64,000 bases of DNA from Patescibacteria group bacterium (GTDB lineage: Bacteria; Patescibacteriota; Patescibacteriia; JAHIZJ01), in contig JAQTMH010000004.1 of NCBI GenBank assembly GCA_028714495.1, positions 64,232 to 128,231 on the forward strand, given 5' to 3'. The notes beneath the pieces are model-generated. The model worked only from the letters and a program-made list of their open reading frames with translations. It was not told where the DNA came from and ran no database searches. Shown piece after piece: positions 804 through 58,263 of the stretch; the stretch's first letter is position 1, and the number at the start of each line of letters is the position of its first letter. Both the position numbers and the translations under genes were made by a program.

Positions 804-1496
804 ATGAAAAAAGATAATATTATTCGCATTGGCCACCGCGGCGCCTGCGGTTATGAACCGGAGAACACGCTCCGGTCGTTTCGAAAAGCGATTGAGCTAG
901 GCGTTGAGATGACAGAATTTGATGTGTATGTTTGTGCGACAGGCGAACTGGTCGTTATCCACGATGATAAAGTTGACCGTACAACTAACGGAACCGGTTA
1001 TGTTTTTAAAAAAACATTTTCCGAATTGAGACAGCTTGATGCCGGTCAAGGTGAAAAAATCCCAACGCTTGAAGAAGTGCTCGATGTGATCAATCGGAAA
1101 GCAAAAGTGAACATAGAATTAAAAGGTGTTGGGACAGCAAAACCGGTGGCTGAAACAATTATTCGTTATCAAAAGGAAAAAGGCTGGTTGATTGATGATT
1201 TTTTAGTTTCGTCGTTTAATCACCACGAATTAAAAGCATTTCATGATTTATTGCCAGAGATTCCAATCGGTGCCCTGATTACTGGGATCCCATTAAACTA
1301 TGCTGAATTTGCAGAAAAGCTGGGGGCTCAGTTTGTTAATGTGTCAATGGAGTTTGTAACTAGAGAATTTGTTGACGATGCGCACCAGCGAGGCCTGAAG
1401 ATTGCCGTTTTTACTGTAAATGAACCGGACGATTTTGAACTGATAAAGGCAATGGGCGTTGATGGAGTATTTTCTAACTTTCCGGATAGAATATAG
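804..1496 (+). CDS. glycerophosphodiester phosphodiesterase (GDPD family)
   Basis: Carries the IGHRGACGYEPENTL motif typical of GlpQ/UgpQ. Start placed at ATG 804 (AAAAGGA upstream); the ORF track allows 780. Confidence 0.8.
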   Translation: MKKDNIIRIGHRGACGYEPENTLRSFRKAIELGVEMTEFDVYVCATGELVVIHDDKVDRTTNGTGYVFKKTFSELRQLDAGQGEKIPTLEEVLDVINRKAKVNIELKGVGTAKPVAETIIRYQKEKGWLIDDFLVSSFNHHELKAFHDLLPEIPIGALITGIPLNYAEFAEKLGAQFVNVSMEFVTREFVDDAHQRGLKIAVFTVNEPDDFELIKAMGVDGVFSNFPDRI

Positions 1497-1629
1497 ACAA
1501 AGCAACAATTTTTGAATTTAAAAAGCTATGTTTTATTTATCCACTTGCTTGTTAATTCCAAGGCCGCTATAATAATATAAGCTCTCTCTCACGCACTGGC
1601 CCGCCATATCCTCTTTCCCCATGATGCCT

Positions 1630-1668
1630 GGTGACTTTAGTCCGCGGCCCTAAAGTCACCTTTTTTAT
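1630..1668 (+). terminator. rho-independent terminator after GDPD gene
   Basis: GGTGACTTTAG...CTAAAGTCACC stem followed by TTTTTT. Confidence 0.7.
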
Positions 1669-1943
1669 TTGCCTTCACACCAGCAGTTGTAGAGTTACTT
1701 AACAATATTTTCAGTACAAACGAAAGCGGAGCCATAGGCAAATAACCCGCCGAAGGCCCCCAATATTACCTAGCTGGTAAAAAGCCAGATAAATAATGAA
1801 AATAAGTACTGTTAAATAAATGCTAACCGGAGGCGGGTAATGACCACCTTATTACCAAGGATTTACATTGGAGATGCCGGAACCCCCTGACTAGATCGGG
1901 GGCCGGCATGACTGCAGAAGTGGTATTATTAGCCGCTGCAAAT

Positions 1944-2055
1944 AACCCCGCCCCAATCTCAGCCAAGTCCGTAGTTTGTCGTTGACCTAAGGCGAAGCCG
2001 CCTAGCGGCTTGCGCTTTTTCTTATTGATGGCGTCCATAAGATTGGGGCGGGGTT
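1944..2055. repeat. 112-nt palindromic hairpin element, copy 1 (16-bp terminal inverted repeat AACCCCGCCCCAATCT)
   Basis: Termini are perfect reverse complements. An internal GCGAAGCCGC...GCGGCTTGCGC hairpin is followed by a T-run. A second copy lies at 48881..48991. Confidence 0.8.
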
Positions 2056-2337
2056 AAACAGCTATTTATTTTAAATAATTGTAAAATTGACCCAAGCCCA
2101 AAAATATGCAATGATTATAAGGCCGAGAGGTTCTTGGCAACCGCTCATTCGGCCCATAACCACAAGGGGGTTCAATTTGAACTGGCCAGGGCTGCTATTC
2201 GACGCAGTCGCGGGGAGTGAGGTCGCGAACAAGGCCAACACGAAGACGGCCGAGCGTGACGACATGTCGTGAGCCAACTCAGGAGGACTCACCCATGAAC
2301 CGCATACGCGATTCCGACTGAACCGCCAAAGCGGTGC

Positions 2338-2372
2338 GCGGCAGAGGTTATCCAACCACTGCCGCCTTTTTA
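2338..2372 (+). terminator. rho-independent terminator
   Basis: GCGGCAG...CTGCCGC stem followed by CTTTTTAC. Confidence 0.55.
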
Positions 2373-2415
2373 CTTTAGGGAAATTAACAGAAGGCGGTTG
2401 TTATCCACAGCAGCT

Positions 2416-2443
2416 TTGACACTAGTAGTAAGTGGACTATAAT
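2416..2443 (+). promoter_or_regulatory. consensus sigma70-type promoter (TTGACA-N16-TATAAT)
   Basis: Exact TTGACA at 2416 and TATAAT at 2438. Confidence 0.6.
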
Positions 2444-2543
2444 ATACCTGTCGTTCGCGTGTGCGGTTGTGCGGCAGGGGGAGTTGGCGAATGACAGCAG
2501 GTAAACCGTCGTGGCCGCATTAACTGGGGAAAGGAGAAATCCT

Positions 2544-2579
2544 ATGGCCAACAGACGGTGGAGCTCGGTTCTCTTCTAG
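2544..2579 (+). CDS. 11-codon micro-ORF (MANRRWSSVLF) with strong SD
   Basis: AGGAG lies 7 nt upstream of ATG. It sits between the consensus promoter and a rho-independent terminator. Function unknown. Confidence 0.3.
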   Translation: MANRRWSSVLF

Positions 2580-2624
2580 CTCTTCCTGGCGAAGAAGAGG
2601 GCTCAAAGGCTCCGGATGCCTGAA

Positions 2625-2698
2625 GGTGGCTGAAAGTATCTTGTCGGGGAGATCCGTGGCGGCTACGACAAGAGCTGGAAGCCACCTCTTTTTATTTG
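2625..2698 (+). terminator. rho-independent terminator (long stem with internal hairpin)
   Basis: GGTGGCT...AGCCACC followed by TCTTTTTATTTG. Confidence 0.55.
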
Positions 2699-3160
2699 CA
2701 GTGGCTAAAACCCTACCCGCCTCCGGTTGCTGCCTGCTTTCGCTTTTTCTATTACATTCATTTTTCATTATTACAACAGTTAGGTAAATAAGGGGGGCCT
2801 TCTGCGGGTATTTGCCCTTGGCTTCGACAATGTAATTAGTAATAGATAATCTTCCACCCATCACATTTGTTGGTTCTTTGTCAAATAAAAAACGGGGCGA
2901 ACCGTCTGAAGGGAGCAAGCCGCAGAGAAGTTTCGGCAGGCGCGGCTTGCCAACCACCGGTTCGCCCCTTCCGGGCAATGGCGATCGGCGCATAGATTTT
3001 TGGAGTTGGGCGGGGTCACCCGGCAAGCTTTTCGGTAAACGCCGACCAATGAGCAATTCAGTACCCCCTAGGCTTCTCTTATAGTCCGGGCGGGAAAAAG
3101 CTCCGGCCCAGCTATGATTTTAGTATAGTTGTTATTGGATAGGCAGACAAGTGCTGGTAG

Positions 3161-3529
3161 TTATAGTTGTTTAACCATGTATGTATCTCGAAGTTTGTAG
3201 CCGATTTTACGATAGTACTCACGCACCCCGATGCCGGAGATAACGGCGATTTTTTAAAGCCTTTTTTGAGAGCGATTTTTTCAGCTTCACGCATTAATCT
3301 TTTGCCCAGGCCAAGATGCTGGACCGCTGATTCCTTCTTTTTTCCCCTTCAGTTCAATCAGCTGGCCGTATATGTGGAGCTCTCTAATCAGCGCGCCGTC
3401 CTTTAAAACCGGAAACAGCTGATTGATTTCCGGCGATGGATAAATTGGGAGCCGGACAAAGGCATAAAGCCTCTGGCGGTTTTTATTCTCGTAGAATATG
3501 AAATATTCAGTGCCAGCCGAAGCCACCAT
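3161..3529 (-). pseudogene. displaced 3' fragment of elp3-like gene (frameshifted)
   Basis: The two short ORFs 3112..3294 and 3287..3529 are homologous to the C-terminal GNAT region of ORF 4579..6180 (LYAFVRLP.., LIRELH.YGQ, KKGFKK). One A is missing in the A-run near 3251, giving a frameshift. The last 87 bp are near-identical to 4590..4677. Confidence 0.75.
3169..3255. repeat. 87-bp direct repeat (left copy) flanking inserted element
   Basis: Near-identical to 4590..4677 (2 mismatches, 1 indel). Flanking sequence is only about 70 percent similar. Confidence 0.85.
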
Positions 3530-3556
3530 TTTTTTAATAATAAAAGGAGGCGTTAT

Positions 3557-4297
3557 TCACGCCTCGCGGGTCAGCTGTGCGATCTCGTCTTTGTAGAGAT
3601 CAAGCCACCCTTCATCAAAGAACCACTTGGGAACGAGTGATCCCTTTAGCCGCCGCTCGCGCTGGAGCGTCCGGTACGTCCAGACGCAGTGACCCTCGCT
3701 GCCGCGCACCTTAGGCGCGGTGACCGCCTGACGCACGACATTGTGCGGAAGTGTGTAGGGCGGATTGAATCCGCCGTTGATTTCGATGTAGGTGCGGCGC
3801 AGGTTGAGCGCTGCCGTGAGGAATCGCACGAGCAGGCTGAACCCGCGGTTGGTGCAGCATGCGTCGGGATGAACGATGATCAGGAACGACTGTCCCCGTC
3901 CGCGCATCGGGTGATTGATGCAATTCCAGGTGTCGCTGCCGTCGATTGCCCGGTCCGTTGTTCGGCACTCAGGCGGAGAGGACAGATACGTGATGGGGTC
4001 GCCGGGTTCGTCTCGCAGGAGCACCCGGTCAGTGGCACCGTTCACCATGAAGGCCCCGTGCCAGCCCAGGAGCTCGGGATGATACCGCGGAATCACGTAA
4101 AGACTGTCGTTCGGATCGTCCGAGAACGTGCAGCAGCCGCGCCAGAACGTGAAGGGATGCTTCTTCGGCGCGTAGAATGTGACGCGCCAGCGTTCCAGGC
4201 AGTCAGTCTCGACTTCCCAGCGCAGGAGAATGCCATAGCGTCTCCGGATGCGCGTGACCAGGCCCTTGAGGGCGCTTTCCAGACTAGGATAGAACAT
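3557..4297 (-). CDS. hypothetical protein with FNPPY motif (possible N6-adenine/N4-cytosine DNA methyltransferase catalytic motif IV), GC-rich foreign gene
   Basis: 246-aa ORF with RBS GGAAGGGGG upstream of ATG 4297. It contains NGGFNPPY; no clear AdoMet motif I was recognised. The antisense 297-aa ORF was rejected. Confidence 0.5.
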   Translation of the reverse strand: MFYPSLESALKGLVTRIRRRYGILLRWEVETDCLERWRVTFYAPKKHPFTFWRGCCTFSDDPNDSLYVIPRYHPELLGWHGAFMVNGATDRVLLRDEPGDPITYLSSPPECRTTDRAIDGSDTWNCINHPMRGRGQSFLIIVHPDACCTNRGFSLLVRFLTAALNLRRTYIEINGGFNPPYTLPHNVVRQAVTAPKVRGSEGHCVWTYRTLQRERRLKGSLVPKWFFDEGWLDLYKDEIAQLTREA

Positions 4298-4506
4298 CAG
4301 TGTACCCCCTTCCGTGGATTTGGTTGGCTGTTGACAGTATTTGGCCGACAGCCCTTTTTATCATATTCAGTTTGTCTTGTCAAGGGCGTAAAAAGGCCGT
4401 CGGCTTGCATTTCTATGGATCGGTGTCGGTTCACTCCTATGAATGGTAACAATGACGATGCTAACCCCACGGCAACCGTGATGAGCATCCTGTACATTTT
4501 TAGCAC
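4297..4506 (-). CDS. hypothetical small protein (69 aa, N-terminal hydrophobic segment)
   Basis: ORF only, inside the inserted element. Confidence 0.25.
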   Translation of the reverse strand: MLKMYRMLITVAVGLASSLLPFIGVNRHRSIEMQADGLFTPLTRQTEYDKKGCRPNTVNSQPNPRKGVH

Positions 4507-4578
4507 ATTGGGCGGTTATACGGCTGAGCCGCGACTCGGTGCTATTGAAACTATATTGCGTTGTCGGATGAATGATAA

Positions 4579-6180
4579 TTAGGACAGAGGTTTGACCATA
4601 TATGTATCTCGAAGTTTGTAGCCGATTTTACGATAGTACTCACGCACCCCGATGCCGGAGATAACGGCGATTTTTTTATAGCCTTTTTGGCGGGCGAGAC
4701 GTTCAGCCGTTAGCATCAGACGCTTGCCAAAACCCAAGTGCTGCACGGCTTTTTTATCTGTTTGACCGACAGGGATCATTTGGCCGTAAGTATGGAGCTC
4801 ACGGATAAGCGCTGTGTTTTTTAATACAGGTAACAACTGTTGCAGGCGAGATTGGCCAATCTCGCCTATGGGTGAATTGTTTGGCAGACGCAGGCGCAGG
4901 AAAGCATAAAGCTTCTTTCGAGTTTTATCCTCGAAAGAAATAAAGCACTCATCTCCAGCCGCGGCCCGGTATTTTTCGGCAAAAATCTTGGCTTGACTGG
5001 GTTTAACCTGGCTGGCACGAGCTTCGCGGCAACGAATGCATTGGCAGATTACGCCGCGCTCGCTTAGAACCTGGCGCAGGTTTGTCAGACGGCTTCCAGC
5101 CACGATATCTGGGCCGGGAATATCGCGCACCAGCCGTTCGATTCTGACCCAGCGGGGAACCAGCGCTTTCAGCTTTGGGATTAATGACATCAGTTGGCGC
5201 TCGGAATAGGGTTTATATTTCCCGCGTTTCCACAGATGATAAAGGGGAGAGTTTTTAAGCACCACGGTCGGATAGAGTTTTAGGAAATCGGGTTTGAAAC
5301 GCGGATCAGTAAAGACTTCCCGGAAGGTTTTGATATCTTTTGCCGGAGTAGCTCCAGGCAAGCCGGGCATGAGATGATAATTGATTTTTAAACCGGCCTC
5401 ACGCAAAAGTTTCGTGGCTTGGACTATGGTTTTAACATCGTGGCCGCGCTTAACCAGCTTGAGGATTCGATCGTCAGTGGTTTGAACGCCGATCTGAACG
5501 CGGGTAACGCCCAATTCACGCAGGCGCCTGATCTCTTCCGGAGTGATGAAGTCGGGCCGGGTCTCGATAGTCAGTCCGATAATCCGGTTTTTGGCGTGTT
5601 CATTCAGTTTCTGAGCAGCTGATAGGCCAGAGGCAGTTTTTCCATTAGCCGCGTCAAAGCATCGCTTAATAAACTGGGTCTGATAGGCTGTTGGGTAAGC
5701 CGACCAGGTGCCGCCGAGGACGATGAGTTCGATTTTATCAGTGGCGTGGCCATTGGCCTGAAGAGTGGCTATTCGGGTTTTTACTTGTCGATGAGGGTCA
5801 AATTTAGCGCGAAAAGCCCGTTGCGCCGCCGGTTCGGAAACCAGATAGCTTTTTGGCATCTGATCTTCGGCCGGACAGTAAACGCATTTGCCCGGGCAGG
5901 GGTAGGGCTTAGTTAGCGCGGTTATTACGGCCACGCCCGAAAGGGTGCGGATTTTGCGGCGGCGCAGGGTATTTAATAGAGGAGCGCTAACCGGCAAACG
6001 CCCGGCCTTTATCAATTGCCGATATGCCCGTAAAATAGTATTATTAGAGATGATCGGGAGATTAAACTCTTTGGCGGCGCGACGCTTAAATCCAGCCAAG
6101 TCTTCCGAGCTAGCGACGCTACTCCCCAATAATTTTTTGACTATGGGATACCAATCCATATGAAAAGCGATTTTGCTCAA
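4579..6180 (-). CDS. elp3: Elp3-like radical SAM / GNAT acetyltransferase (tRNA U34 modification family)
   Basis: Radical SAM region has KIRTLSGVAVITALTKPYPCPGKCVYCP and GHATDKIELIVLGGTWSAY. The C-terminal domain is GNAT-like. 533 aa. Confidence 0.8.
   Translation of the reverse strand: MSKIAFHMDWYPIVKKLLGSSVASSEDLAGFKRRAAKEFNLPIISNNTILRAYRQLIKAGRLPVSAPLLNTLRRRKIRTLSGVAVITALTKPYPCPGKCVYCPAEDQMPKSYLVSEPAAQRAFRAKFDPHRQVKTRIATLQANGHATDKIELIVLGGTWSAYPTAYQTQFIKRCFDAANGKTASGLSAAQKLNEHAKNRIIGLTIETRPDFITPEEIRRLRELGVTRVQIGVQTTDDRILKLVKRGHDVKTIVQATKLLREAGLKINYHLMPGLPGATPAKDIKTFREVFTDPRFKPDFLKLYPTVVLKNSPLYHLWKRGKYKPYSERQLMSLIPKLKALVPRWVRIERLVRDIPGPDIVAGSRLTNLRQVLSERGVICQCIRCREARASQVKPSQAKIFAEKYRAAAGDECFISFEDKTRKKLYAFLRLRLPNNSPIGEIGQSRLQQLLPVLKNTALIRELHTYGQMIPVGQTDKKAVQHLGFGKRLMLTAERLARQKGYKKIAVISGIGVREYYRKIGYKLRDTYMVKPLS
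4590..4677. repeat. 87-bp direct repeat (right copy) flanking inserted element
   Basis: See 3169..3255. Confidence 0.85.
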
Positions 6181-6870
6181 ACCTTGTTAAGAAAAGTCCG
6201 CGCCGACTATCAAATGCTGGCGGATCAGTATTCATCTACCCGGGAAGACATCTGGCCGGAGTATCTCGAGTTTCAAAAATATCTTCAGCCGGGAATGAAG
6301 GTTTTAGATATTGGCTGCGGCAATGGTAGATTAACGAAAATCTTCGATAAAGTAAAGGTTGATTATACCGGCGTGGATGTCAGCCCGCGTATGCTGGAGC
6401 AAGCCCGGAAGCTTTTCCCGGGTTATAAATTTCAGGTTGGCGATATTATGAATCTGCCGTTTAGCGAAGGAGAATTCGACGCGGTGTTTTGCCTCCAGGT
6501 CATCCACCAAATTCCCTCGGGCGAACTGCGCCGCCAAGCGCTTGGGCAAATGTCGCGGGTGCTTAAGCCAGGTGGCCGGATTATTGTAGCGGTTTGGAAT
6601 TTGTGGCGGCCGATTTACCGCTCGAAGCTTAATCGAAATAACCTGAAGAAATTTTTTGGTCTGACGCCGTACGACAAAAATGACATTTTGATACCCTGGC
6701 GCGATTCCGGGGTGGAGCAGTATTATCACGCCTTTACCCAGCCTGAATTGAAAAGGCTTTTGAGTCAGGCCGGTCTGAGGGTTGAACGGGAGTTTTTGGG
6801 CAAGGAATACAAAACAGACAGTAAGTACCACTTCAACAACATTGTCATCATCGCACAAAAAGCGGGTTAA
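6160..6870 (+). CDS. class I SAM-dependent methyltransferase
   Basis: VLDIGCGNGRLT glycine-rich motif I, and motif II VLKPGGRIIV. Confidence 0.8.
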   Translation: MKSDFAQTLLRKVRADYQMLADQYSSTREDIWPEYLEFQKYLQPGMKVLDIGCGNGRLTKIFDKVKVDYTGVDVSPRMLEQARKLFPGYKFQVGDIMNLPFSEGEFDAVFCLQVIHQIPSGELRRQALGQMSRVLKPGGRIIVAVWNLWRPIYRSKLNRNNLKKFFGLTPYDKNDILIPWRDSGVEQYYHAFTQPELKRLLSQAGLRVEREFLGKEYKTDSKYHFNNIVIIAQKAG

Positions 6871-9508: not shown

Positions 9509-10942
9509 ATGAAAATCAATCCGTTCGTTTTTCGTAACTATGATATCCGAGGAATTGTCGATGTTGATCTTGACGTTGAAAAAGTTGAAGCAATCGGCAA
9601 GGCGTATGGGACGTTTTTGCGGCGCCGGAAAATACGCCAAGCGGTCATTGGACGCGATTGCCGGTTAAGCGGTCCTGATTACCAAACCGCGATGATAAAA
9701 GGCATGACCGCGATGGGTATTGATATGGTTGACTTGGGAATGGTGATGACTCAAATGGTTTATTATGGCCACTACCGTTTTCAGACAAATGGCGGGGTCA
9801 TGATCACCGCCTCTCATAATCCTTGGAATTTCAATGGCTTTAAACTGGGCGTGGGTTATTCGCAAACAACGGAGCCGGAACACGTTCAGGAGATAAAAGA
9901 TATTGTTGATTCGGACAATTATTTTAAATCCGATGAAACAGGTAAGGTTGAAAAAGCCGATATTACCGAGGATTATTATCACGACGTCTTGAAGCGCGTC
10001 AGGCTGAAGAAAAAATACAAGGTCGTGGTTGATTCACATTTTGGTACGACCGGAATGTATATCCCCGAGATTCTTAAACGGGCTGGTTGCGAGGTTATCG
10101 CAAAAAATATAAAGGTAGATGGGCATTTTCCGGCTGGCACGCCAGATCCGACTGACGAAGCACTTATGAAAAAGGTCAGAGACATGGTTTTGGAAGAAAA
10201 GGCCGATGTGGGCTTTGCTTTCGACGGTGACGGTGATCGGATCGGCGTGGTTGATGAACAGGGACATATCCTTTGGAACGACGTGTTAGTGGCGATATTT
10301 GCCCAGGAAATTCTCAGCCGTTTTCCTAAGTCGAAGATTGTGTATAACACTCTCTGCTCGCAAGTTGTACCCTTGGTAGTGGAACAGGAAGGTGGCATAC
10401 CAGTAATCTGGCGGACCGGCCATTCGTTTATCAAGTCAAAAATAGCTAAAGAAAAGGCGGCCTTTGGCGGTGAATTATCGGGTCATTTCTTCTTTGCCGA
10501 CAATGCTTATGGTCACGATGACGGCTCATACGCCGCTTTACGTCTTCTGGAATATCTCTCTGACCGAAATCTGACGTTAAGCCAGGTTTATGAATCTTTC
10601 CCGCAATATATCTCATCACCAGAGATAAAGATCGGTTGCCCGGACGACAAGAAAGCCCAGGTGATAAAAGAGATATCGGTAAAATTTCAAAAGGATTTTC
10701 CCGAGGGAAAGGTGACTGATGAAAGAGTAATTCCAGGCGATGACGGTTGTCGGATTGATTTTAAGGACGGCATGATGATTTTCCGCTATTCACAAAACGG
10801 CCCATATATTACAGTAAAATTCGAAGCTAAGGATAAAGAGACTTACGAGAAACGCCGCCTTTATGTCCGCGATACACTCAAATCGTACCCGGACATGATT
10901 TGGGAAGACCAGCTCTGCGTTAATTTAGCCGTACTTGAATAA
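9509..10942 (+). CDS. phosphoglucomutase/phosphomannomutase paralog
   Basis: ITASHNPWNFNGFKL and FDGDGDRIG motifs. Confidence 0.85.
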   Translation: MKINPFVFRNYDIRGIVDVDLDVEKVEAIGKAYGTFLRRRKIRQAVIGRDCRLSGPDYQTAMIKGMTAMGIDMVDLGMVMTQMVYYGHYRFQTNGGVMITASHNPWNFNGFKLGVGYSQTTEPEHVQEIKDIVDSDNYFKSDETGKVEKADITEDYYHDVLKRVRLKKKYKVVVDSHFGTTGMYIPEILKRAGCEVIAKNIKVDGHFPAGTPDPTDEALMKKVRDMVLEEKADVGFAFDGDGDRIGVVDEQGHILWNDVLVAIFAQEILSRFPKSKIVYNTLCSQVVPLVVEQEGGIPVIWRTGHSFIKSKIAKEKAAFGGELSGHFFFADNAYGHDDGSYAALRLLEYLSDRNLTLSQVYESFPQYISSPEIKIGCPDDKKAQVIKEISVKFQKDFPEGKVTDERVIPGDDGCRIDFKDGMMIFRYSQNGPYITVKFEAKDKETYEKRRLYVRDTLKSYPDMIWEDQLCVNLAVLE

Positions 10943-26517: not shown

Positions 26518-26791
26518 GGGGCAATTATATCAGCCTGGCGGGGTCTTGACAAAAGCTAAAGAATGCGCTATTATACTTGGTTATTGAGGATTACAGCGGT
26601 TATTGTTGAGAATAAAGGCGGCGGATAGGAAGGTTTTTAATAATTTTCTGTCCTGCGCCTTGATTCAGTCAGACATTTGTCAGACGAACCAGGGCAGATA
26701 GTCGCTCTTTACTATTTATTGGTGTTAATGGCCATTAGGTCCATAGATTCTGTGGTGTTTGGTCGCTCAGGGTTCAACAAGGAGGATTGTC

Positions 26792-27379
26792 ATGGCACTC
26801 TCGCACACGGTCGCAATCACCGAGCTTCCTCTGAAGCAGGTCATCGTTCGGTTCTACACCATGCCGCCCAAGGGCACCGCCATCCCGGAACAGAAGCGCG
26901 ATGATCGGCGTATTGAACAGCGCCACACTACCGAGGCGCAAGCTCAGGGCATCGACGCCCAACGGCTCCAGCGCGGCAAGCCCGACTCGGGCCGGCAGCT
27001 CAGGGACGTGACCTACGCGACGCTCGACCTGCTCATCTCGGATCTCCGCGCTCTCGGCTTCAAGCTCGTCCAGGCCTTCTGGAACGAGCAGCGCCGGGCG
27101 AACGATCCGAACCGGCCCATGTATGTCGTCTCGTTCGTCTTCGGTCTCGAAGGCGAGGAGATCGCGCTCGGTCCGGTCGACCTGGAGTGGTTCATGCGCC
27201 GGATCAATCTGGCCCACGAGAAGGTGACCATCTTCGCCAATCCCAAGCGGATGGGCGAGGAGGAGGACTTCACCTGGCGTCAGGACACGGTCAACTGCCG
27301 TGGGGCCAAACCCGACCAGTCGCCACGCCTCCAGACACGGATGCGCGAGCTCGGCGACTATTCGCACGACGAACTGTAG
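26792..27379 (+). CDS. hypothetical protein, GC-rich singleton
   Basis: AAGGAGG SD is 6 nt upstream of ATG 26792. A plus-strand terminator follows. GC content is clearly above flanks. Confidence 0.55.
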   Translation: MALSHTVAITELPLKQVIVRFYTMPPKGTAIPEQKRDDRRIEQRHTTEAQAQGIDAQRLQRGKPDSGRQLRDVTYATLDLLISDLRALGFKLVQAFWNEQRRANDPNRPMYVVSFVFGLEGEEIALGPVDLEWFMRRINLAHEKVTIFANPKRMGEEEDFTWRQDTVNCRGAKPDQSPRLQTRMRELGDYSHDEL

Positions 27380-27423
27380 GACAGCTCGTCCTACTTCCAC
27401 CTGGGTTCTGCACACAACTGCAA

Positions 27424-27468
27424 CAGGCCGGCCTTTTCCTTCGGGGATTGTGCCGGCCTCTTCTTTTT
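27424..27468 (+). terminator. rho-independent terminator
   Basis: AGGCCGGCC...GCCGGCCT followed by CTTCTTTTT. Confidence 0.65.
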
Positions 27469-27524
27469 ATACGAGAAGTCTATGTATCCGTAGGTGAGCG
27501 TTAACACTCACTTACGGACGTAAA

Positions 27525-48742: not shown

Positions 48743-48880
48743 AAGTCATCCTTTCTAACCGACTTTCCCGCTATCCTGCTTTCTAACCGACTTTAGTCGG
48801 GTAGTGAAAAAAAGGTGGGATCCCGTCGAACCTGTCCCGTCGAATGACGGGATGGCGGGATAGCCGGGTTAACGATGTTT

Positions 48881-48991
48881 ACCCCGCTCCAATCTCAGCC
48901 AAGTCCGTGGTTTATTGTTGGCCAAAGGCGAAGCCGCCTAGCGGCTCGCGCTTTTTCTTATTGATGACATCTATAAGATTGGGGCGGGGTT
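48881..48991. repeat. 112-nt palindromic hairpin element, copy 2
   Basis: About 90 percent identical to 1944..2055. Immediately followed at 48992..49025 by the sequence that lies 755 bp downstream of copy 1 (2811..2843). Confidence 0.8.
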
Positions 48992-49062
48992 CTTTGCCAT
49001 TGGCTTCGATAATGTAATTACTGAATTATTTACTTCTACTCATTACCAGAATTGGTACGGGG

Positions 49063-49098
49063 CAAAGAAAAAGGCGGAGCAGGATTGGTGCTCCGCCG
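49063..49098 (-). terminator. rho-independent terminator for ORF 49156..49546
   Basis: GGCGGAGCA...TGCTCCGCC; T-run on minus strand. Confidence 0.6.
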
Positions 49099-49155
49099 CA
49101 GGCTATGTGTTAGATTACCTGTGTGCGTGTTGCCGCCTAGGTTGGCCGCGTGCTG

Positions 49156-49546
49156 CTACTTGGGATCGCCCTCCGGCTGATCTCCAGCTCCCTCGGCTTC
49201 GCTTGCCGGAGCGCCCCCACCCTCCTCCGCCACGGCCGGAGCTTCCGCGTCATCGGTCGGCCCGACGCGATCTCTGTCCAGCTCGCCTTCGCCCTCGTCC
49301 TCGGCTTCGTCCTCCTCCTCGTCCTCGTCCGGGACATCCACGCCCTCCAATGGCTCGATGTAGAGCGTGTCGCCGTCTTCGATCACCGCGTCCGGGTTGA
49401 TCTCGCCCTGCTTCTCGGTCACGAGCCGGTGGGTCTCCGGGTCGAACTCGTAACCCGCCTCCTCCAGCAGTTGCTGGGCCGTGACTTCCTCGCCCTCCAC
49501 CATGGGTTCGTGCCACTCGGTCACCTCCGTAACTCGGCGCATTGAA
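49156..49546 (-). CDS. hypothetical acidic protein with possible beta-grasp (ubiquitin/MoaD-like) N-domain, GC-rich singleton
   Basis: AAGGAGGAGG SD. N-domain pattern is AQQLLEEAGYEFDPETHRL...VIEDGDTLYIEP. The C-terminal tail is poly-acidic. Confidence 0.45.
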
Positions 49547-49950
49547 AATCCTCCTCCTTGTGGGGTTTTGCGTTTCTGGCCGCACCTTACGGCCTGGAAA
49601 CATATTACAGGATGCCAAAAAATTGTCAATATGCTGAGATATCCGAAAGACAGTTAGCTACAAAGTGTGCTTGACTCGGGAAAAAATACCAGTGTAAGAT
49701 GGCGCTTGCGTGTTAGAAGTATCGCTGCCAACTTGACTATGATAGACAACTCGTGACCAGCCGATTAAGTAACGGAGACTAGACAGACCAACTTACCCGC
49801 TATGTCATTTTTGACCTCTGGCGGGCTATTTTTTACTAAAATTTGCTGATAATATACTAATCAAGTAAGATATAATTAAATAAGAGATTAACATTTTTCT
49901 GGGTTCTCGGGTCAAGCCCGAGAACGACAAGATAATAAAAGTTTAATAAA

Positions 49951-57832: not shown

Positions 57833-57858
57833 ATAGAAAAGGTCAAAGAGCGGTGAGT

Positions 57859-58154
57859 TCCGCGATAGCTCAATGGTAGAGCAACCGGCTGTGTACGAAA
57901 ACGCAGCTTCCGATGGAAACGTCGGGATGAACTCTCTGGGATAACGGTGAAGGCTTCATTCAAATTCTATTTGAATATGCTGATACCGTGGGAACCCCCG
58001 CACCTTCCGAAGGTGAGGGGGGCGCCGTAGAGACTAGATACCAGAGTGCCTAAACCCAGTCATTTGGGTAAGGCAAAGATATAGTCCATGCCGTATGGAA
58101 ACATATGGATTACGTGTAACCGGTAGGCTGTCGGTTCGAATCCGACTCGCGGAG
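57859..58154 (+). tRNA. tRNA-Asn (anticodon GUU) interrupted by a group I intron in the anticodon loop
   Basis: Exon 1 is 57859..57892 and exon 2 is 58117..58154. The spliced product has acceptor TCCGCGA/TCGCGGA, D arm GCTC-AATGGTA-GAGC, anticodon stem ACCGG/CCGGT, loop CUGUUAA, T arm GTCGG-TTCGAAT-CCGAC and discriminator G. Confidence 0.8.
57893..58116 (+). ncRNA. group I intron (224 nt, small IC3-like tRNA intron)
   Basis: P1 pairs exon GCUGU (57888-92) with IGS GCAGC (57903-07), giving a U.G wobble at the splice site. R element AGAGACTAGA (58029-38) and S element AAGATATAGTCC (58076-87) form P7. The terminal G (omega-G) is at 58116. Confidence 0.8.
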
Positions 58155-58263
58155 CTCGCCGCTTTTACTATTTAGGAAGATATTTAGGAAGAAGTGATGG
58201 ATCAATAATAAATTATCCCTTTGGATTGATTTTTTGCTTGATTAGGGGTAAACTTTAAAAAAG

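Follow-up and report, generated by a model that had tools for sequence, protein, structure and literature searches.

Insertion-duplication of the Campbell type, in which a circular or "ends-in" DNA molecule that carries an internal fragment of a target gene recombines with that gene, is familiar from suicide and integrative plasmids and is described by the double-strand-gap repair model. Insertions are also made at the 3′ ends of genes by integrative elements, as in the case of ICESt1 and ICESt3 in the 3′ end of fda, the cis-mobilizable elements (CIMEs) of Streptococcus thermophilus, and the islands found in tRNA genes. A further route, homology-facilitated illegitimate recombination, is defined for naturally competent bacteria (PMC3240628). 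Here we describe a stretch of 64,000 nt from contig JAQTMH010000004.1 of a Patescibacteria group bacterium (the whole stretch is called the window below), in which the 3′ end of elp3 is the site of a discrete insertion of foreign DNA, 1,421 nt long and bounded by direct repeats. The insert contains an open reading frame of 246 codons (ORF246), a candidate small RNA (sRNA)-like unit called PD, and a fragment of a second elp3 called PU, and nothing else; no tyrosine or serine recombinase is encoded by it.

The near identity of the direct repeats, claimed in an earlier reading of this DNA made without database searches (the sequence-only reading), was borne out. As shown in Table 1, the two copies lie within elp3-derived sequence, and positions 3180-3255 and 4601-4676 are identical over 76 nt at an offset of 1421, which is the longest run at that offset. 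Over 3169-3268 compared with 4590-4689, the identity is 93% without gaps, and only two mismatches (3173/4594 and 3179/4600) fall inside 3169-3255, so that the near-identical block (the core) measures ~84-87 nt. Upstream of the repeat, in gene orientation, the identity over ~270-275 nt is only ~58-62%, and the edge of the repeat is marked by a 1-nt indel within a T/A run. By our arithmetic, 76 consecutive matches at a background identity of ~60% have a probability of ~1e-16, and self-BLAST of the whole window returned no other repeats of such a kind.

A search of 5.8 billion proteins for the closest Elp3 returned P0130, which is 95% identical in amino acid (aa) sequence to the resident Elp3 and belongs to a sister metagenome-assembled genome (MAG), GCA_028717285.1 (L005). 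The window and L005 have the gene order PGM, PGM, DUF8173, methyltransferase, elp3, non-coding stretch, GDPD, and HAD in common, and the spacing from elp3 to GDPD is ~1.4 kb less in L005 than in the window. L005 4374-11570 aligns with window 11786 to 4590 at 96.7% identity, L005 11321-12674 matches window 3421 to 2082, and below 3169 the window sequence is collinear with L005. In a four-way alignment, L005 passes from resident-type sequence upstream of the core, through a core that equals the right core of the window save for 2 nt, into the sequence found below the left repeat. The structure of L005 is therefore upstream-core-downstream, and that of the window is upstream-core, 1,421 nt, core-downstream, with about one private change in each core copy. 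An empty-site allele had been predicted by the sequence-only reading, and L005 supplies it: elp3, a single core, and the downstream sequence follow each other with nothing between, and because this empty site is exact, the 1,421 nt are present in the window and absent from the sister genome.

In composition the cargo stands out as foreign, as had also been proposed: its G+C content is 61% compared with 47% for the window, and its G+C content at third codon positions (GC3) is 0.77 compared with 0.53-0.56 for the neighboring genes. Read in gene orientation, the order of the product is elp3, core, new last codons, PD, ORF246, terminator, PU, core, and original gene end. The resident elp3 stays intact, and the idea that the insert brings a replacement 3′ end holds to the extent that the new gene end does come from the insert, although the coding sequence supplied amounts only to the last three codons and the stop (VKQL* to VKPLS*). 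The cargo has its own terminator and probably its own promoters. PD has a promoter-like site, and a TTGACA upstream of ORF246 is conserved in our reading of the comparison with contig L001 (see below).

Table 1. Parts of the locus at the 3′ end of elp3 (window coordinates)
Feature	Positions	Strand	Basis or remark
Resident intact elp3, radical-SAM/GNAT tRNA U34 modification enzyme	4579..6180	-	Pfam Radical_SAM, Radical_SAM_C, GNAT; collinear with L005 up to 4590
Right direct-repeat copy (core), within elp3 3′ end	4590..4676	-	Exact run 4601-4676
Segment of 1,421 nt without counterpart in L005	3256..4676 (equally 3180-4600)	-	L005 alignment
Replacement elp3 terminus from insert, ..VKPLS*	4579..4594	-	L005 and left copy read ..VKQL*
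PD unit, sRNA-like (predicted), ~150 nt	within 4330..4580	-	Promoter-like site 4578 to 4550; hairpin and T-run ~4410-4390
ORF246, protein-coding, 246 aa	3557..4297	-	dN/dS; family of 128 representatives
Intrinsic terminator of ORF246, overlapping its stop codon	3547..3565	-	Kept in L001
Junction of post-terminator sequence and start of elp3 fragment	3516..3534	-	Two homologies overlap by ~15 nt (AAAAAATGGTGGCTTCGGC)
PU, 275-nt elp3 C-terminal fragment, no start codon, two frame changes	3256..3530	-	
Left direct-repeat copy (core), then original gene end VKQL* and host downstream sequence	3169..3255	-	

The left copy as a whole (3170-3530, minus strand) is an elp3 C-terminal piece of ~120 codons that becomes readable after two frame changes, one in a variable loop and the other a 1-nt change in an A-run at the edge of the core. 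With the frames restored, PU is 59% identical to the resident Elp3 over 88 codons (54% in the multi-sequence alignment; 58% at the nucleotide level), with a nonsynonymous divergence (dN) of 0.31 and a saturated synonymous divergence (dS). Its best match among 120 Elp3 proteins is P0132, at 63%, compared with 54% for the resident and 55% for L001; further, PU has the short-loop form of the P0132-P0134 group, whereas the resident shares the long loop of P0131, P0136, and P0137. PU thus derives from a distant elp3 lineage and not from the resident gene, and the divergence between the two has the pattern of functional orthologues that belong to different lineages. Accordingly, of the frameshifted elp3 duplicate described in the sequence-only reading, the C-terminal fragment and its two frame changes stand, but the fragment is not a duplicate of the resident gene. 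Because the best match of PU reaches only 63%, the donor lineage is unsampled. At informative sites, PU tends toward the L007 type (47 sites compared with 30), a count that is confounded by base composition (G+C differences). The affinities of neighboring genes are mixed as well: the methyltransferase, DUF8173, and Elp3 residues 1-180 are nearer to locus L007, and PGM and Elp3 residues 181-480 are nearer to locus L006. No clear switch of affinity along elp3 emerged from a sliding-window comparison.

The content of the insert other than PU has a counterpart in a 2.2-kb contig of another Patescibacterium, SRR22387827_2528722 (L001), which carries P0002, the product of ORF245. The order in L001 is elp3 3′ part, PD, ORF245, and terminator. 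L001 aligns continuously with window 5280 to 3516 and then diverges exactly at the start of PU; because the alignment ends where PU begins, the order in the insert is that of L001, circularly permuted (core-PD-ORF-terminator-PU compared with elp3-PD-ORF-terminator). At this junction, the homology with L001 stops at 3516 and the elp3 homology of the fragment begins at ~3534, the overlap being read by eye. The identity between the window and L001 is ~60-68% in elp3, 63% in PD, and 83% at the nucleotide level in the ORF (92% in its first third). L001 elp3 is 78% identical to that of L006 (P0131) and 69-78% identical in aa sequence to others. L006 is without an ORF246-like gene but has homologues of PD of L001 and of the sequence downstream of ORF245; these flanks are therefore ordinary chromosome in that clade. 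A second copy of elp3 or of the core is absent from L001 within the 480 nt after the terminator.

The loci L006 and L007-L009 share the upstream synteny but are without ORF246 and PU. Directly downstream of elp3, L006 has a 180-aa lipoprotein-like ORF of 62% G+C compared with 52% for the locus, and L007-L009 have a 170-aa ORF of 52% G+C compared with 42%. There is no second elp3 fragment at the L006 or L007-L009 loci, nor any trace of one in the sister genome.

Consistent with the sequence-only reading, which had seen no integrase in the window, no integrase, recombinase, or transposase Pfam domain was found in the insert or in any window ORF of at least 150 aa, in a scan of ORFs exclusive of antisense and overlapping ones within these genes; the ORF at 9509-10942 (a phosphoglucomutase by synteny with L005) was covered via the precomputed annotation of its L005 orthologue. 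The scanned ORFs have housekeeping or uncharacterised products. Over most of the 10 kb that they share, the window and L005 differ at 0-3 positions per 100 nt, with no differences in 2700-2999, but the rate rises to ~8.6 per 100 nt over 5700-4600, and 3000-3199 alone has 44 differences. Because divergence is raised on both sides, the insert lies in the middle of a recombination tract of ~2.7 kb, which we read as the exchange of a whole allele, with or without the cassette, by homologous recombination between strains ~9% apart. Divergence between the sister MAGs is patchy more generally, with patches of 8-12% (5700-4600 and 6500-6700) among stretches of 0-3%, and this pattern suggests frequent homologous recombination in the population. 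According to PMC12455944 and PMC10633639, Patescibacteria keep homologous-recombination genes and are naturally competent, with which an exchange of the allele between strains is consistent. The literature on elp3 together with Patescibacteria yielded only an unrelated Thorarchaeia context.

We consider that the insert arose, with a probability of about 0.55 for two paths taken together, by homology-anchored, recombinase-independent acquisition of foreign chromosomal DNA. The locus would then be a non-autonomous scar, left when DNA passed horizontally from one Patescibacterium to another through the recombination machinery of the cell and not through an integrase; a stretch of donor chromosome (elp3, the sRNA-like gene, the ORF246 gene, and the terminator) would have been joined to the host within the ~84 nt that are best conserved in the elp3 3′ end. 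On the simplest path, a single reciprocal (Campbell-type or ends-in) crossover would have taken place between the host core and a circularised or permuted donor fragment of 1.4 kb, gap or mismatch repair against the chromosome would then have made both core copies host-like, and the sister genome would represent the ancestral state. A circular or ends-in intermediate, dependence on RecA, and uptake of the DNA by competence are presumed parts of this explanation. A Campbell crossover followed by repair would explain the precise insertion-duplication, the host-like cores, the permuted collinearity, the divergent elp3 fragment, and the lack of a recombinase. Consistent with it, the arrangement is that of an insertion-duplication, in which PU and the core, together ~360 nt from an elp3 3′ end, lie at one end and the 3′ terminus of the resident gene lies at the opposite one, and the sharp boundaries (76 nt exact beside ~60% identity) and the host-lineage character of both cores are as repair against the chromosome would give. 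The locus is thus similar to known Campbell-type insertions in that the insert has homology to the target, a segment is duplicated in direct orientation around it, the insert is permuted relative to its source, and both repeat copies are chromosomal, as gap repair predicts. It differs from them in being natural and not engineered, in having a homology arm that is ~60% identical outside the ~84-nt block, and in that the "vector" is a 1.4-kb piece of foreign chromosome without replication functions, its circular form being presumed.

The other path is homology-facilitated illegitimate recombination, in which a linear donor fragment in the L001 order would have been anchored in elp3, and its far end would have been joined illegitimately at 3516-3534 (~15-nt overlap), displacing the old 3′ end of the host gene, which would now be PU; the sister strain would later have deleted the cassette between the repeats. 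The locus resembles this process in having foreign DNA beside a homologous anchor with no dedicated recombinase, a short overlap of similar sequence at a non-homologous junction (3516-3534), and a donor order collinear with L001; competence has, in addition, been reported for Patescibacteria (PMC12455944; PMC10633639). In the classic process one junction is homologous and one illegitimate, whereas here both host junctions lie in the same core, and the process fits only if PU is the old 3′ end of the host and the sister strain underwent a later deletion. The partition of informative sites along elp3 has the shape that the linear-fragment path predicts, but a maximum chi-square test was non-significant (p = 0.14, by permutation). 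On either path, the allele, once formed, would move between close strains, or be lost from them, by homologous recombination of its flanks. A homology-anchored origin is further favored by the tract of raised divergence around the insert, by the other GC-rich single genes that L006 and L007 have directly downstream of elp3, and by the lack of the ORF246 family in phage and plasmid collections and in IMG/VR.

Several points weigh against such an origin. Recombination at only 60-85% identity is very inefficient. For the Campbell path, a plain piece of chromosome would have to pass through a circular or permuted form. The linear-fragment path requires a later precise deletion in the sister lineage as well as the non-significant breakpoint in elp3. 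Precise direct repeats together with a precise empty site are the classic signature of an integrase, too. ORF246 and ORF245 (83% aa identity, dS 0.54) are far closer to each other than are the adjoining elp3 sequences (~55-67% aa), and the gene may have reached its position downstream of elp3 twice independently, which would fit a targeted element better. Affinities within the insert are also mixed, PU being of the P0132/L007 type and PD of the L001/L006 type only.

Some of these points are what would be expected of a small non-autonomous integrative element (CIME- or satellite-like) that used the ~84-nt elp3 core as its att site and was mobilized by a recombinase acting in trans, with PU-core-PD as attP and the sister genome as attB. 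As in the elements of S. thermophilus and other insertions at gene 3′ ends, near-perfect direct repeats flank the insert, the end of the gene is restored from element sequence, and a relative has the precise empty site; like a CIME, the insert is a small, cargo-only unit without an integrase, and its parts stand in the circularly permuted order that an excised circle would give. The presence of a close cargo homologue downstream of a quite different elp3 in L001, and the similarity of ORF246 and ORF245 beyond that of the adjacent elp3 sequences, would also be accounted for. We regard such an element as the main alternative, although a somewhat unlikely one. There is no recombinase within reach, either in the insert or in the ORFs of at least 150 aa of the 64-kb window; no second copy of elp3 or of the core is seen in L001 within the 480 nt that follow its terminator; both flanks of ORF245 are homologous to ordinary L006 chromosome lacking the gene; and cargo and flanks are ordinary chromosomal sequence in other Patescibacteria. 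Further, a repeat that stays identical for 76-84 nt, synonymous sites included, beside sequence of 60% identity exceeds what an integrase needs of an att core and would imply gene conversion in any case, and the long divergent gene fragment that flanks the repeat resembles a recently functional gene more than a long-lived att arm. Only one further copy is known, with no others in 5.8 billion proteins, Joint Genome Institute (JGI) metagenomes, IMG/VR, phages, or plasmids, and no contig with an excised circular junction (PU-core-PD) turned up in protein-based scans. Thus, of the integrative element at the 3′ end of a gene that the sequence-only reading had proposed, the discrete foreign insertion and its empty site remain; its integrase-driven nature is unsupported. 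The insert permutes an ordinary chromosomal locus of another Patescibacterium, and homology-driven recombination explains it at least as well.

It is improbable that the cassette arrangement is simply the older one and that the sister lost 1,421 nt by recombination between the repeats or by import of an empty allele. Exact direct repeats of 76 nt are good substrates for deletion, the ~9% divergence of the allele flanks makes both alleles old relative to the rest of the genome, and about one private change per core copy is compatible with some age; but L006 and L007-L009, with their shared upstream synteny and neither ORF246 nor PU, call for an insertion on the way to this lineage regardless, and an older cassette would alter only the polarity of the difference from L005 and not the nature of the feature. 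An assembly artefact, namely a chimeric contig in which the 76-nt core served to link DNA from two organisms of one sample, is very improbable. Although the source is a metagenome-assembled genome and the repeat is shorter than a typical read pair, a chimera through one repeat cannot give the junction from terminator to PU and then return to host sequence, the identity over 76 nt of organisms whose adjacent sequence agrees at only 60% would be left to explain, and both flanks are collinear with an independent assembly. Hardly credible, finally, is a local tandem duplication of the elp3 3′ end with decay of one copy, insertion of a gene between the two, and gene conversion of the core: it would yield two elp3 3′ ends in direct orientation, as observed, but PU and the resident look like two functional orthologues (saturated dS, dN 0.31, lineage-specific loop lengths), and the sister genome, 96% identical here, has no trace of a second copy. 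Overall, we retain homology-anchored acquisition by the cell's own machinery as the preferred explanation. An extension of it, which we hold to be unlikely, is that Patescibacteria swap single-gene "cassettes" without mobile-element machinery, with a 3′ fragment of elp3 as the travelling homology arm. Insertion by host recombination may then occur at the same gene in distant lineages, and the position downstream of elp3 may be a recurrent landing pad; the different GC-rich single genes downstream of elp3 in the window, L001, L006, and L007 would reflect this landing-pad pattern. In a bolder version, the ORF246 family itself may promote insertion.

ORF246 corresponds to NCBI protein PHI73_04285 and was compared with ORF245, to which it has 83% aa identity at a dN/dS of 0.21 and a dS of 0.54. 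The differences fall at the three codon positions in numbers of 30, 22, and 75, and of the other five frames, four have a dN/dS of >1 and the fifth (antisense) has 0.27 but 12 stop codons. On this frame comparison and the dN/dS of 0.21, the possibility that ORF246 is a spurious ORF of GC-rich or structured-RNA sequence was rejected. In the first third of the gene (window 4297-4050 compared with L001 957-1200), dS is 0.25 compared with 0.65-0.83 in the rest, perhaps because of a mosaic history or of constraint acting on the nucleotide sequence. An exhaustive HMMER search yielded a family of 128 cluster representatives, most of them ~360 aa long; ORF246 matches the C-terminal 200-230 residues of these longer relatives, and other short forms exist. 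The family loci with named organisms come from Adlerbacteria, Saccharibacteria, and Paceibacterota, and the family is restricted to Patescibacteria. Close relatives are few: the index of 5.8 billion proteins held only the protein itself and P0002, and a JGI metagenome scan returned none. The family likewise had no match in phage collections, plasmid collections, or IMG/VR.

Amino-DNA methyltransferases (N6_N4_Mtase, MT-A70) have the motif IV (D/N/S)PP(Y/F/W), and the sequence-only reading had linked ORF246 to them. The FNPPY string on which this rested is present, and to this extent ORF246 is like them. However, ORF246 has no Pfam hit (E up to 0.1), no NCBIfam, PHROG, or PADLOC hit, and no sequence or profile hit to the Protein Data Bank (PDB), and among its longer relatives, 10 scanned against Pfam and two against NCBIfam gave no domain and no methyltransferase hit. 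In an alignment of 44 sequences, F49, W52, P130, G176, F177, L211, and P223 are invariant, and Y72-H73-P74, G87, T89, H129, G175, R198, G199, and E201 are at least 90% conserved; in the 11 closest members, but not beyond them, N86, S200, and C204 do not vary either. G-G-F (175-177) is thus invariant or nearly so, but the next four residues vary (GSPY, KPPY, STSL, DGNL, and others), and the closest homologue of ORF246 has NPPH in place of NPPY; nor is the S-adenosylmethionine (SAM)-binding motif I (FxGxG) conserved in the family. The predicted model (mean predicted local distance difference test, pLDDT, 93.7) had no fold match and no methyltransferase or recombinase-like neighbor, and is not Rossmann-like. 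The methyltransferase reading was therefore rejected because of the variation that follows GGF and the NPPH of the closest homologue, as well as for want of a profile hit and of a methyltransferase-like fold. The predicted fold of the family is a confident one that matches nothing solved and is apparently new, and the conserved polar residues (His, Glu, Arg, Ser, and Cys) point to ORF246 being most likely a cytoplasmic enzyme.

In most family loci, the family gene has a G+C content 5-12 points higher than its flanks, and elp3 was not found near the family gene in 14 more distant family loci (L002-L004, L010-L012, and L013-L020). At one of them, L013, two short motifs recur on either side of a distant family gene (4018-4480 and 5699-6159): a terminator is followed by a 37-nt block that is identical on both sides and, ~370 nt further, by a repeated TTGATT...TATAAT promoter. 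These repeated intergenic motifs do not amount to the duplication of a gene fragment.

Homologues of the PD unit lie at L001 686-924 and L006 8305-8557 (nhmmer E ~1e-63); the unit is absent from L005 and L007 and was found only in L001, L006, and the insert. In L006, PD does not adjoin any ORF246-like gene. A closing helix between its 5′ and 3′ ends is predicted in L001 as well as in L006, and the unit may be a conserved sRNA-like gene with its own promoter and a terminal stem and T-run. It has no Rfam match, and an Rfam scan of 1400-4700 at a permissive threshold gave nothing real. The 69-aa hydrophobic ORF (4297-4506) that had been noted as part of the cargo was rejected as a gene, being unconserved in L001 and lying over the conserved, non-coding PD unit.

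Other features of the window were recorded alongside. In the ~1.7 kb between the GDPD gene and the insert (1500-3160), no gene is convincing; Pfam gave no hit for the 178-aa ORF found there, and there is no Rfam match. On the plus strand, a perfect TTGACA-16-TATAAT at 2416-2443 leads to a terminator at ~2630-2695, and further promoter-terminator units run from 2087-2115 to ~2376 (plus), from 1549-1576 to 1668 (plus), and from 3150-3122 to 2907-2890 (minus). About 1.1 kb of this region is conserved at 96% in the sister MAG, long-range inverted repeats allow 1661-1959 to pair with 2692-2892, and the units may be unannotated structured RNAs. A second strain difference, ~300 nt of non-homologous sequence, lies at 1776-2082 in the window and at 12674-12990 in L005; its flanks are well conserved on the elp3 side and ~85% identical on the GDPD side. 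The GDPD gene itself is intact in the window (238 aa) and is represented by two ORFs (178 and 56 aa) at L005 13276-13964, where it may be disrupted or the assembly may be in error. A 111-nt element occurs in two copies, 91% identical, at 1945-2055 and 48881-48991; its ends are inverted repeats of 17 nt (ACCCCGCCCCAATCT...AGATTGGGGCGGGGT), a T-run comes after an inner hairpin, and the fold has -56 kcal/mol. None of the other loci compared, the sister MAG among them, has a copy; the first copy lies in the strain-variable segment, and the element may be a small mobile or repeated one.

Two GC-rich islands, 26700-27500 and 48800-49700 (0.60-0.64 compared with 0.47), hold one orphan ORF each, namely 26759-27379 (plus strand, 206 aa), with no Pfam hit, and 49156-49629 (minus strand, 157 aa), which encodes an acidic protein with a sub-threshold KHA hit; these islands, too, may be acquisitions of single genes. 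A tRNA gene at 57858-58185 (plus strand), situated between rpoD and an SDR gene, is split in its anticodon loop by a group I intron (RF00028, 57883-58108, 52.4 bits). The gene was missed by ARAGORN as it stands, but with the intron removed in silico, it was called as Thr(CGT) with most choices of boundary.

Patescibacteria have tiny genomes with few recognisable mobile elements, yet they have much gene turnover at the strain level. We read the locus, at slightly better than even odds, as foreign chromosomal DNA that entered a Patescibacterium by insertion-duplication, with no integrase involved, carrying a member of a protein family of apparently new predicted fold and a putative, unannotated sRNA-like gene. 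Read in this way, it would be a clean empty-site case in which a single foreign gene enters without an integrase, leaves its essential target intact, and is passed on by recombination of its flanks. If the pattern is general, it would account for part of the "islet" variation in Patescibacteria genomes.

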